Part shown: positions 1 through 6,000 of the stretch, piece after piece
Position numbering within the stretch: position 1 is the first letter of the stretch
How the letters are laid out: the number at the start of each line of letters is the position of its first letter
Virus record (IMG/VR): IMGVR_UViG_3300022602_000026
Reading direction: 5' to 3' (one strand)
Length of the DNA stretch: 64,000 bases
Source of the DNA: a virus
Lineage: Duplodnaviria > Caudoviricetes
Made by a program: the position numbers

Positions 1-3000
1 TAGATGAAGCCACATTTATTATGTTGCAATTAAATGCCGGAAATCTTGCACAATATTTAGACAATTTAGAAGACAATCAGTGATTTGACCATTAATGGCA
101 ATTTGTATATAATAGTAATTGCGTATTTAATTTACCAAGGAACACTATGAATCCCGATCGCGACCTCGCAGTAGACAGTGCCAAATTTGAATACATCTGG
201 CCCAAGGCCTATCCCTATTATTCCAAGATCCCGCTTGTGACAAAGTTTGTACGCAAACTGGTCCAAGACGACATTATTGGACTAGGGCAGATGTTTGAAA
301 AGGCAATCAGTGTGCAATGCCGAATTGTACGCGAAAGCACGAGAGGGCGCGACTTTAAAAATGGTGATGATGCCAAATTGGTCGTAGTTAGGACTCATAC
401 TCGCGGTACAGCTTATGCTGCTCCGGTCACCAACATTCATGCCAAGACCGGAAACTTGTTGATAGCGGTGTACGAGCGCAAACAAAAGAAATGGTATCAC
501 TTCAAGATCCCGTATGCGGCATACAAACATATTCCTGCGTCAAGTAACATTGACATTGTGTTTGAACTGGATGGAACGCCCAAACGAAAAAATCGTCAAA
601 GCGTCAATTGGTGGAATTACGAAGTCGCGACCTTTAAGGATCTAGCATGAGTTATTTAGATGTAATACGTACCAAGTACGATATTAAAGACTACAAAGAA
701 GCAAAAGTAGAAATACCCAAACTTCCCACAGAAGGTATTGTGTTGATTGTGGGCACTAGTGGTAGTGGCAAGAGTACTATACTACGAAGTTTAGGCGAAC
801 TCAAGCAACCCTACATAGATGATGAAGCCTATGTAATCGATAACTTTAGCTCACCCGAACGCGGTGAAGAACTGTTGTTAAGTTGTGGATTGCGTACTAT
901 ACCTGCTTGGTTTAGACCGCCTGTTACACTCAGCAATGGTGAACGGCATAGATTTGAAATGGCCATGAGTTTGGATCAAGGTATCAACACCATTGATGAA
1001 TTCACCAGTGTGGTGGATCGTGATACTGCCAAGAGTTTAGCATACAGTGTTCGCAAGTATTATGATCGACAGGCAGACGGTAAGCCGTTATACATTGCCA
1101 GTTGCCACAGGGACATAGTAGAATGGTTAGACCCCGACTACGTATATGACACGGACTTACGTGTCTTAGAAAACCGGAGGTCACTTCATCGATTGGGGCG
1201 ACCCTCCATTACTCTCACCATCCGCAGCGCAAGTAGCACGTATTGGCGACTGTTTGGTAAGTATCACTATCTAGACACTGCACTGGCCAAAGGTGCACAT
1301 TGTTATGTGGGCCTAATAGACAACAAGCCGGTGGTGTTTGGTGCTGTTATTCATAGCACCAGCGGAACACTACACAGTTATTGGCGTGGTCATAGAACTG
1401 TGGTGCTACCCGAGTTTCAAGGCCTGGGTATTGGATCGGCATTCAGTGATGCAGTAGCAGAAATATATCACAGTCGCGGCCTGTTGTATTACAGCAAGAC
1501 TGCACATCCTGCGTTTGGCGAGCATAGGAATCGTAGTCCTCTATGGCAAGCCACTAGCACCAATGGCAAAAGTCGTGCTAACAGTTATTTAAACAAGGAT
1601 GGCACCAAGCGAGCCATGCCCGGCTATGGTGGAACTACTGTGGAACGCGATGCAGCTCGTGTGTGCTATTCACACAAATACATTGGAAAAAGTTAGGCAC
1701 TAGCAAGTTCTTGTTCACCTTGCGGAGTCAAGAACCAAAATCCATCGCCAGGAGTTACAATCAATCCCGCACTTTCTAGACTGTCATAAACACGTTGTTG
1801 ACTATCTGTAACGCCACGTATGTCTTGTTGAAAGTCTAATTTATGGTTATTAGCAACGTCAATTGCTTTCAACAACAATAGTTTGCCGTATCCTTGCCCT
1901 AGAAAACGGCCGTCAACTTCCACTTCATTATTGACATCATCAGTGTCAGGATCTCGAACAAAATTAAAATGACCTATGCGTTTGCCCTGAGCCGATAAGG
2001 TGATTTGAAAACTACTTGCGAAATTGTCAGGTGTATGTACTGCAAATTGTAGTCCCGATGATTCTGTTAGGATTTCTGTTATTCGCATTATGTGTACACC
2101 AAACTGTCTATTCTTTTGTAGCGAATGTTAAATGCGTTCATTAGTAATTCTACTTCGCGCAAACATTGATCTCGTGCCCCGCCAACTATATAAGCACCAC
2201 TAAAACGTTTTAATTGTGCAATACTGGTCCAATTAACACTAATAGGATCATCTTCCATTTCCTGCATAGCACCCATGATCAAACTCTGTTGTGGAGTGCG
2301 TCTGTTAGATGCAGGAAATTGTAATTCTCTACTGTCACTTTTCTTTTGTTGATATAGTTCACGTATAGTGGCAATAATTGTTGCAGACTCTATTCCCGAA
2401 TCCATCCAGCTTCTTAAATAACCATAGCCTTTGTCCGCTATTTGAACTCTACGCCAATTCTCAGGAGCAAATCCCGAATCGTCCCAATATTCTTTAATAC
2501 TTTGAATAGTATCTCCACTGAGTCCTTGATCTTCTGCGTTGACAAACATCAATACTGGTCCGGTTTGATGGTTTACAAATTGAATAATTTCTGTGAATAC
2601 GGAGTTTTCATCACCGTCATTCATGCCCGAATATTCAGGTTGTACATCCACCACTATAACAGGGTGTGCTCGGCCTTCTGTGATGATTTCTTGTATACGC
2701 ATTATATTGGGTTATTTCATATCTGCAAGTGGGTCAAACAACACCACGTGACCATCACTGCCCATGGCGTAGTTGTTTATGTTGTCAAAATCAACATACA
2801 CATTTCCGTTGTATAATCGGTATGAATTTTTTCGTGCTATTCCTACTAAATCTAACACTGTTTGAACAAATTGTTGTAATTTTTCTTCACCGCCCAAATA
2901 AGTGATAGCAGTTGCTACCCACAGTTGTTCTTCTCTACTGGCTCGTGGATTTTGAAATTGACTCTCAGAGTCTTTTCTGGGCTCCTTGTCTACAAATCTT

Positions 3001-6000
3001 TTTAAGAATTGCTGGTATACGTTTTTGTTTTGAGCGTTATGGTATATCCAATTTGCCATGACATAAACCCCCCTCACTACTCCTTGACGCCCTTTAAACG
3101 GAAACAATCGTTCCATTCTGATCTGCAAATAGGGACGACCTTGATACATAAACTGATTCCACCCCGACATCTGTGGTAGAAATTCATTGTCAGGATGTTG
3201 TTGGCAATAATCAGCAAACAATTTAAAAACTTTTTGTGGCCTAGTAAGTTCACCTGCGACATCATCTGACTTGAATAAGTTTGTGCCCAATATCTTGAGC
3301 ACCATGCCAGTATCAGGTTCTAAAAAGGCCATACTGTCACCGCCTTGACCAAGATATTGATATCCACGACTGATTAAGTCAGCCTTGATGCTGCGACTGT
3401 GTGCTGAGGCTTCTGTAAGGATTTCTGTTATTCGCATGTTGTATTTATGTTGTTTTCCCGCAACAGTCAATTTGTCCAGAAATGACACTTTTGCTATAAT
3501 ATGAACATAGTAAGAAATTAGGAGTTGAACAATGTTACAAGCCGTATTTGAAAATACCGTAAAATCACAAGTTGTTGCATACGACGCAACGGCAAACCCT
3601 AGCTTCGTTAACGGCTCTCTTTTTGTAGAGTTTGTTGCTGATGCTGATTTCACTGCAGAATCAAAAGCACGCCAGGTGCTTAACGAACTCAAGTGCCTTA
3701 ATTACCGAGTTCAACTGGCCGGCCCAATTGGCAACGAATACGCATACGATTTTGTTGCGTAATTGCAACACCACGTTTGCTCAGAAAAGACGTTTAAGTT
3801 ATAATAAGATATAGTGAAAAACAAGGATTTGCAATGATTCAGGACTATGGAATGTTTACCCCAGAAGGCAATGCGGCAGTTCACGGCATTGTTTTATTAA
3901 GTCGTGTACATGAGCAGAGCTGGCTCTGCACTTGGCAAGCCCTGGTTAATCTTGCTCGAGAACCTGGCTTTGAAGAAGCCACAGACACTATGGTTCGTGA
4001 AATTGTTTACGACGCCTGCAAATTTACAACAGATTTTTATGTCTAATTTGACACGAAATGACAATCGCAATATAATACATTTTTAACTAGGAGAAACTAT
4101 GTCAGTAGCAGAACACCGCACCGTTAGTCCCACAGAAGCACGTAGTCGCGTTTTACGTTGTTTTAAGAATAAACGTCCAGTATTTTTATGGGGCCCTCCC
4201 GGCATCGGTAAGAGTGAACTGGTAGCAGATTTGACCGCAGAACTTGGCGGACACATGATTGACTTGCGTTTGGGTCAAATGGAGCCCACAGACATTCGTG
4301 GTATTCCATTCTTTAACAAGACAAACGAAAAGATGGATTGGGCTCCTCCAATTGACTTGCCTGACGAAGAAATGGCTAGTAAGTATCCAATCGTTGTGCT
4401 ATTTTTAGATGAGATGAATTCAGCGGCACCCAGTGTGCAGGCAGCTGGTTATCAACTTATTCTTAACAGACGTATCGGTAAGTATGTGCTTCCAGACAAT
4501 GTGGTTATTGTTGCGGCCGGTAACAGAGAATCTGATAAAGGTGTTAGTTACAGAATGCCAAGTCCCTTAGCCAATCGCTTTGTTCACTTGGAAGTTAAAT
4601 GTGACTTTGATTCGTGGTTCCAATGGGCCGTTAATCACAACATCCACCAGGACGTAGTAGGTTACATTGGCTTTGCTAAACAGGCTTTGTTTGAGTTTGA
4701 TCCCAAGAGTGCTAGTCGCAGTTTCGCTACTCCACGCTCATGGAGTTTTGTTAGTGACTTCTTGCAAGACGAAGATGCTAGCGATGCAGAGCTTACAGAC
4801 TTGATTTCAGGTACTGTAGGTGAAGGTACTGGTATTAGTTTTATGGCGCATCGTAAGGTGGCAGGTCAAATGCCCAAGCCCGAAGATGTGTTGAGCGGTA
4901 AGGTCAAAGAGCTTAAAGTAAAAGAAGTCAGTGCTATGTACAGTTTGACAATCTCCATGTGCTATGAATTGCAAGATCAGTACAAGAAGTTGGGCAAGGA
5001 AAAACTTGCAGACTGGCATGCACAGGCCGACAACTTCCTGGGCTTTATGATGGCGAACTTTAGCACAGAGTTGGTGGTTATGGGTGCAAGAGTTGCGCTT
5101 ACAACTTACAACTTGCCCATGGTACCTGGCAAGATGAAGAACTTTGACGAGTTCCATAAACGCTTTGGCAAGTACATTATTGCTGCTAGCGGTAAGTAAA
5201 CAAAGGGGCTTAGGCCCCTTTTTTTGTATGAATTTTTTACCTGTTCCAAAATTACTTAAATGGGCACCCAGTGTTCCTCAACAGTATACCAGTAAGAAAA
5301 GTATACTATTGACCACGGGGTGCAGTTTCACCGCTAGTACATTACAAACTGATTTTGCTGCTTCGTGGCCGGGATTTGTTTTGGATCGTTGTGGATTTGA
5401 TCATTGTGTTGACTATAGTTATCCCGGAGTAGGAAACGAATACATTGGCGACAGTATTTTGCATCATTTGGCAAGTGTGCCAAATCCAGACGATTACATG
5501 GTGATTGTGATGTGGTCGGGATTGGATCGTATGGCAGTAAAAAGTTTGGGCGCTGAACAACCCAATCTAAATGGCACGGTATACAGTAATGGTGCAAAAG
5601 ATTCTATTAGAGGAACTGCAATTTCAAAGAGTAAAATGTTTGAAGTTAAAAAATACTTGGAATCTCGGCACATTCCCTATGTGTTTACCATGTACGCTAA
5701 TTTATTATTTCCGCCGTATATTCCCAAGCGAGACGGCACCCCTGAATTCAAAGATGACGCATTAAAGCAGATTAATTGGATCCCAAATCAACCAATGGAT
5801 TTTCTATACGAATTTGGATTTAAGAATTCGTTGTTGTCCGATGATTTATTTCATCCTACTAATAAATGCACGGATCTTTGGACCGATAAGGTGCTTTTAC
5901 CCCAAATGTGTGCAGGAAATTTAATTGAAAAACTGTAGTCTAAAAACAACACTGAATTTGCCCAGAAATGGTGATTTTGTTATAATATATACATAAGTTA

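Follow-up and report, generated by a model that had tools for sequence, protein, structure and literature searches.

The internal proteins IPII and IPIII of bacteriophage T4 start with the capsid targeting sequence (CTS), MKTYQEFIAE|A (read from NC_000866; here and below, a bar stands after the final Glu). In mutational work on the T4 CTS, residues 4 and 7 mattered for targeting and residues 8 and 10 for processing (PMC9026906). The T4 enzyme Alt, which is packed into the head and injected, starts with MELITELFDE (read from NC_000866), and mass spectrometry located gp21 cut sites in it at ITE-6 and LTE-619 (PMC5694885). Here, we describe a cassette of three genes in IMG/VR virus record IMGVR_UViG_3300022602_000026 (Caudoviricetes), a stretch of 64,000 nucleotides (nt) that we call the window. 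The cassette proteins share the N-terminal peptide MRIxEIxTE (the tag) ahead of unrelated sequence, and the tag recurs on many unrelated proteins (cargos) of jumbo phages from lakes. We consider it fairly probable, from the comparisons below, that the tag is a CTS-type address and cleavage peptide by which late-made enzymes enter the prohead and are delivered together with the DNA.

Short or long N-terminal sequences serve similar ends in other phages. In the jumbo phages phiKZ, 201phi2-1, and SPN3US, a diverged gp21-type protease cuts many internal or ejection proteins after Glu, and phiKZ-like propeptides are thought to direct proteins to the prohead (PMC5694885). In contrast to the tag, these propeptides are mostly of 100+ residues, have no shared short tag, and end in (S/A/G)-x-E instead of (I/L)-x-E. 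The large enzyme DarB of phage P1 has an N-terminal signal for head loading and is delivered to the host against restriction; this signal can carry a reporter (PMC9024508). The P1 Dar system differs in its unrelated sequence, in stepwise loading that needs other Dar proteins, and in that no tag is shared by many cargos. A literature search for the tag strings gave the T4 CTS as its sole match. To our knowledge, there is no other known system with this motif.

The tagged cassette

The preliminary description of this DNA had claimed three minus-strand genes with a common MRIxEIxTE N-terminus and otherwise unrelated products, and an open reading frame (ORF) listing, a six-frame scan, and BLASTP bear it out. 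Gene 1 (2712–3437; ATG 3437) encodes a tagged protein-kinase-like protein of 241 residues, gene 2 (2088–2702; ATG 2702) a tagged isochorismatase-like cysteine hydrolase of 204 residues, and gene 3 (1693–2088; ATG 2088) a tagged, predicted GNAT acetyltransferase of 131 residues. They open with tag 1 (MRITEILTE; 3411–3437), tag 2 (MRIQEIITE; 2676–2702), and tag 3 (MRITEILTE; 2062–2088), respectively, all on the minus strand. A gap of 9 nt lies between genes 1 and 2, while the stop codon of gene 2 and the ATG of gene 3 overlap in TAATG. The scan found M-R-I-x-E tag starts in the 64 kb window at these three genes only. In pairwise BLASTP among the three proteins, the first 9–13 residues aligned and nothing beyond, and tags 1 and 3 were identical at 26 of 27 nt. 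We did not accept an extended gene 1 with a start at TTG 3692, as this ORF overlaps the divergent plus-strand gene and homologues begin at the tag.

By sequence, the tag is a peptide of T4-CTS form, namely an N-terminal peptide of about 10 residues that ends in (I/L)-x-E, with a hydrophobic residue three or four positions before the Glu. The proposed resemblance to the T4 capsid targeting sequence extends to both the CTS of IPII and IPIII and the Alt propeptide. Both the tag and the CTS are common to otherwise unrelated proteins (late ones in T4 and putatively late ones here), and both read M-K/R, then E-hydrophobic-I/L-x-E, then a small residue, as seen in MKTYQEFIAE|A compared with MRAQEFITE|A and MRITEILTE|A. 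MRAQEFITE|A, found in a gene 1 homologue among other variant tags, corresponds to the T4 CTS with one residue deleted and conservative substitutions. In the tag, the positions that correspond to the functional residues of the T4 CTS are occupied by conserved hydrophobic residues and Glu. The cargo sets of both are hypervariable between relatives, and the two would also share a two-part logic, in which the first half serves targeting and the last three residues serve processing. The window tag includes both ITE and LTE, the gp21 cut tripeptides of Alt; ITE is that of the Alt N-terminus, and the C-terminal LTE of Alt corresponds to tag residues 7–9. Alt is an enzyme that is packed in the head and injected, as is proposed here for the lake-phage cargos.

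There are also clear differences. In T4, the cargos are three small basic proteins; the lake phages have at least 47 cargo clusters that include enzyme folds, encoded in multi-gene cassettes with a putative leaderless late promoter. Alt comes from a single gene that has an ordinary leader and a Shine-Dalgarno sequence, and none of the kinase-like, hydrolase, and GNAT cargos of the window is an ADP-ribosyltransferase (ART). This kind of system is known from T4, and what is new is how many cargos there are and of what kind, their organization in cassettes, the putative leaderless late promoter, and the evidence from fusion junctions for a two-part code.

The kinase-like, cysteine hydrolase, and GNAT labels given earlier to the three proteins hold at the level of fold because of structural matches, conserved catalytic residues, and the presence of PF00583 in homologues. 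The AlphaFold2 (AF2) model of the gene 1 product, built from 16 homologues, had a predicted local distance difference test score (pLDDT) of 79. Its top Foldseek matches in the Protein Data Bank (PDB) were all protein kinases (PknB, MEK1, and SRPK), with a probability of 1.0 and a template modeling score of only about 0.3. Lys48, Glu109, Asn222, and Asp235 are conserved in the family. A search for Pfam families gave no match for gene 1, the modeled structure of which is a bilobal kinase fold with the catalytic Lys, Glu, and Asp/Asn loop and the metal-binding Asp. For gene 2, the first 26 entries of a wide structural search were all isochorismatases, nicotinamidases, or cysteine hydrolases (Z 8.1–9.6; root-mean-square deviation 3.2–4.1; 117–133 residues aligned), and the triad Asp19, Lys91, and Cys180 is invariant in the family. 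No Pfam family matched gene 2 at E up to 0.1, and its model had no Foldseek match in the PDB at E ≤ 0.001. Gene 3 scored just under the Pfam cut-off for PF00583 (E 0.001; 19.7 bits against 20.7), and in precomputed data, homologues at 74% identity bear PF00583; its product is predicted to be a small GNAT.

The tag in related phages

Relatives had been expected to bear the tag on other proteins, and they do so on many unrelated cargos. A first degenerate DNA pattern, ATGCGN ATH NNN GAR ATH HTN ACN GAR (M-R-I-x-E-I-(I/L/M)-T-E), matched 97 loci of IMG/VR, nearly all of them true ORF starts, in 32 unrelated protein clusters. A variant pattern, M-R-A-x-E-F-(I/L)-T-E, matched at least 120 further IMG/VR loci, bringing the two together to more than 200. 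The first pattern and scans of whole records yielded 98 unique tagged proteins of 39–514 residues in 47 unrelated cargo clusters. A looser pattern had nine matches in a complete record of 543 kb and one to four in each of four fragments, while the reversed pattern, used as a control, had none in the same five records. The shared tag is real and far beyond chance. The wider consensus is M-[RK]-[IA]-x-E-[FI]-[IL]-x-E followed by G, S, or A, of which MRIxEI(I/L)TE in the window is the local form, and distant homologues of the window cargos bear diverged tags such as MKSHEFLTE, MRAHEIISE, MKIKEFLVE, MRAQEFITE, and MRASEFLTE. The hydrolase family has 813 metagenomic members, and nearly all of the 120 listed start with M-[RK]-[AI]-x-E-[FI]-[IL]-x-E-G, the tag ending two or three residues ahead of the conserved core.

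The tag-bearing contigs are pieces of genomes of about 350–540 kb according to CheckV completeness, and belong to jumbo phages of lakes. The window locus was found in DNA runs of lake and freshwater metagenomes; no RNA run was among the sequencing runs listed with the window stretch. Megablast of window positions 1–8000 against 50,697 isolate phage records (INPHARED) gave no match. By the AAA ATPase, the nearest isolates were PA5oct (52%), Phosso (45%), and Atu_ph07 (37%). The bS21 lake phages (PMC9723584) were considered as the clade and rejected, their GC content being 31–34% against 40% for the window.

Several other features of the tagged cargos were observed. In one relative (L010, 830–2543, minus strand), three tandem tagged kinase-like paralogues of 187–192 residues lie behind one TAAATA, a local expansion of this cargo. 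The module E|NFADG(K/Q)NP was observed in P0161, P0163, P0165, P0170, and P0172 and at L066 7039–7749. It stands immediately behind tags and again where the basic C-terminal extensions of GNAT homologues begin, and looks like a reusable junction with a basic tail. Several tagged cargos of relatives have a Y-H-G/I-T start and weak leads to ART families, consisting of a single sub-threshold Pfam ART-PolyVal match and Atlas leads (DarT, PARP, and Arr) that score below 0.9; an ART identity is a lead for these cargos.

Codon and position statistics of 85 unique tagged ORFs suggest that the peptide, and not its DNA, is what is conserved. Ile is encoded in the tags by ATA (33), ATT (27), and ATC (25), and the codons for Arg, Thr, Leu, and Glu vary as well. 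Met1, Ile3, Glu5, and Glu9 do not vary, position 4 is unconstrained, and 53 of the 85 have Ser, Ala, or Gly at position 10, past which there is no conservation. Since synonymous codons vary freely while the residues stay, selection acts at the amino-acid level. In approximately 790 kb of unselected sequence, the core motif stood directly after Met in 21 of 34 occurrences; therefore, the motif is an N-terminal feature.

The tag also behaves as an addition to proteins that exist without it. It is disordered or detached in the AF2 models, and residues 1–11 of gene 1 have a pLDDT below 50. A bacterial structural homologue of the hydrolase is untagged, with an alignment that starts at residue 18. 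DUF6267 proteins are untagged in T4-like cyanophages and tagged in the lake jumbo-phage clade, and the DUF6267 homologue of the T4-like Stenotrophomonas phage DLP_6 starts with MMKFTQFLAE|S. In natural fusions of an upstream domain to the hydrolase, the new N-terminus has a full tag, while the internal junction retains only [LV]-x-E-G, the first half of the old tag having decayed. This pattern is predicted by a two-part code in which a single address at the N-terminus suffices and every junction requires a cut site, although a structural role of Glu9 and Gly10 could account for part of it.

Comparison of the DNA with close relatives, the flanks of which are 85–93% identical, showed that the cassettes vary in presence and in order, with breakpoints that fall in the tag, in agreement with the swappable set of enzymes that had been suggested. 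Two relatives (L041 and L089) are without the kinase-like cassette; their junction lies inside the tag (window 3400 | 2708), where the homology blocks overlap by 46 nt that can be aligned to both tag 1 and tag 2. Another (L006) is without the hydrolase cassette, with a deletion junction at 2676 | 2091, and in L067 the hydrolase is followed by another GNAT-like cargo. In L132, the order is a cargo of 172 residues, the hydrolase, and the kinase-like protein, and the promoter stands ahead of whichever gene comes first. The breakpoints in the tag repeat and the near identity of tags 1 and 3 indicate that the tag-coding repeat is the exchange point. Such swapping of cassettes recalls the polymorphic internal-protein loci of T-even phages.

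The cassette is preceded by CATAAATA (3442–3449, minus strand), a motif like the late promoters of T4, and TAAATA is plausibly the late promoter as judged from sequence. The TAAATA of CATAAATA ends 4 nt ahead of the ATG of gene 1, and there is no Shine-Dalgarno sequence; this spacing implies a leaderless or near-leaderless mRNA for the cassette. Among the 85 tagged ORFs, TAAATA ends exactly 4 nt from the ATG in 26 and within 4–7 nt in 36, and Shine-Dalgarno-like sequences are present in 14. The structural genes of the window (54458, 53453, and 48863) have ATAAATA 20–26 nt upstream, with a leader. Thus, the reported similarity between the motif of the cassette and those of the structural genes holds for TAAATA itself but not for the spacing. 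In the complete record G002 (L135–L162, 543 kb), the distance from TAAATA to the start is bimodal: 24 ORFs form a narrow peak at 5 nt, and a broad one covers 21–35 nt. In L127, head genes including that for the portal also have TAAATA ahead of them, and in G005 the spacing at the portal gene is 5 nt. A class of putative late genes with TAAATA 4–5 nt before the ATG, and hence implied leaderless mRNAs, can be seen throughout the G002 genome, at 7003 and 8793 of L127, and at 3437 of the window; in a second class, the leader measures 21–35 nt.

The preliminary description had asked for a gp21-like protease, and an S77 protease gene with a head module in T4 order is present in related contigs. Of 10 tag-bearing records, 4 contained a Peptidase_S77 (T4 gp21) gene, and the remaining six are fragments of 15–37%. 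In L127, the order is portal, a protein of 74 residues, an acidic protein of 274 residues, protease (9964–10599), scaffold, and major capsid protein, which is that of T4 genes 20, 67, 68, 21, 22, and 23. The major capsid proteins of the clade have L-S-E|S or L-A-E|A just ahead of the conserved mature N-terminus, and these L-x-E|S/A sites fit an (I/L)-x-E specificity of the protease. The C-terminus of the L127 scaffold (10610–11719) is KRLAGL, and a leaderless ORF of G002 (126944, minus strand) starts with MEDIRRLRHLAGL; the two may represent a second shared short motif.

Proposed function and alternatives

The computational predictions of the preliminary description all came back positive, and we favor a CTS-type role for the tag. 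Late transcription from the TAAATA promoter would give a leaderless polycistronic mRNA of the cassette. The N-terminal half of the tag would then dock the cargo on the scaffolding core of the assembling prohead, and a gp21-type S77 prohead protease would cut after the final Glu of (I/L)-x-E, freeing the enzyme in the head. At the next infection, the kinase-like, hydrolase, and acetyltransferase cargos would exit with the DNA and could act before any phage gene expression, in host takeover or counter-defense. The shared tag-coding DNA would double as a homology patch for the gain, loss, and reordering of cassettes.

Several points weigh against this proposal. The S77 protease and head module are known from relatives and not from the window's own genome. 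The T4 CTS has one residue more than the lake-phage tag, and many members of the dominant MRA-type family have R, Q, or K instead of a small residue at position 10. Glu9 and Gly10 could partly serve the hydrolase fold instead of cleavage, and some cargos, such as a ligase-like DUF6267 protein and GH19, have no obvious need for a location in the head. Among isolates, tblastn of the kinase-like and hydrolase proteins against the 50,697 phage records gave no match, and the genomes of Phosso and Atu_ph07 had no tag match. PA5oct has one loose tag, MKIKEIILE, in the hypothetical protein EST35_0271 (L125 3882–4268), the annotation of which has no note of electrospray ionization tandem mass spectrometry (ESI-MS/MS). 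This tag sits five codons inside the annotated start, and the gene is on the strand opposite to its neighbors. We regard the comparison with PA5oct, Phosso, and Atu_ph07 as uninformative.

The evidence for a protein-level, N-terminal, modular tag would fit equally well an assembly or docking peptide, cleavable or not, for a site other than the capsid interior, or a propeptide that inhibits the enzymes until late. Candidate destinations are another part of the virion, a phage hub such as the giant protein of more than 3100 residues, or a cytoplasmic complex. However, the specific match to the T4 CTS, to the Alt propeptide, and to the gp21 cut motif, together with a T4-type head module, points to the prohead, and we hold these other roles to be rather unlikely.

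The remaining explanations place the conservation in the DNA or mRNA. The start might be a module of promoter and first codons for the translation of leaderless late mRNAs, with a peptide that has no role. The recurrent 4-nt TAAATA spacing and the rarity of Shine-Dalgarno-like sequences among tagged ORFs agree with such a module, as do the many leaderless ORFs of G002 (TAAATA at 3–8 nt) that open with tag-like MR or MK sequences. In contrast, the amino acids are fixed while synonymous sites are free, internal operon genes coupled by TAATG have the tag without a promoter, and the x-E-G half persists inside fusions. Untagged leaderless late genes also exist, the portal gene included; late mRNAs without a leader are common throughout the clade, with or without a tag, which further weakens this explanation, and we consider it improbable. 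The shared 27 nt might also be a recombination homology box only, with the peptide as a passenger, given that the breakpoints of indels and reordering between close relatives fall within the tag repeat and that tags 1 and 3 differ so little. Nevertheless, tag DNA diverges at synonymous sites across the clade while the peptide is kept, distant homologues (35–40% identity) still have variants of the tag, and a homology box does not need the context of an N-terminal Met; this explanation appears very improbable.

Should the tag have the role of the T4 CTS, the proteins that these uncultured jumbo phages inject could be recognized by a simple rule of sequence. Dozens of families without known function would fall under this rule, among them kinase-like, hydrolase, acetyltransferase, and ADP-ribosyltransferase-like enzymes, and the tagged proteins would be prime candidates for host takeover in the first minutes and for counter-defense. 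The internal-protein strategy of T4 would then be old and widely used beyond the T-even phages, here in the form of shuffled cassettes, and the tag would provide a second natural peptide, of nine residues, for loading foreign proteins into phage heads. A broader proposal, which we put forward tentatively and think somewhat more doubtful than probable, is that any ORF starting with M-[RK]-[IA]-x-E-[FI]-[IL]-x-E encodes a head-packed effector, with a two-part code, polyprotein cutting, and an integron-like array. In that case, uncultured lake jumbo phages would have a large unrecognized set of injected proteins. The address would lie in the first half of the tag and the protease site in the second, multi-domain polyproteins would be cut into separate effectors, and the tag repeat would be the recombination site of an integron-like effector array with a leaderless late promoter.

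Neighboring genes

The cassette is antisense to flanking genes of early type, as had been stated, since its plus-strand neighbors have sigma-70-type promoters, at 3472–3500 and 4048–4076. The former is an extended −10 promoter ahead of a gene for a protein of 76 residues at 3532, and the latter has a perfect TTGACA-17-TATAAT (12 of 12 positions) ahead of the AAA ATPase gene at 4099. Both promoters are of early type and divergent from the putatively late cassette. The convergent neighbor (647–1696, plus strand) encodes an ABC-type P-loop ATPase fused to a GNAT domain (phrog_11143, E 3e-83), and is in the same position in all relatives regardless of cassette content.

Two further regions of the window were observed. 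An ORF of more than 3100 residues (54463–63999, minus strand) runs past the end of the window and adjoins genes for virion proteins. By PHROG matches, positions 10234–46684 hold a long stretch of genes for radical SAM, carbamoyltransferase, and related tailoring enzymes, beside structural genes.

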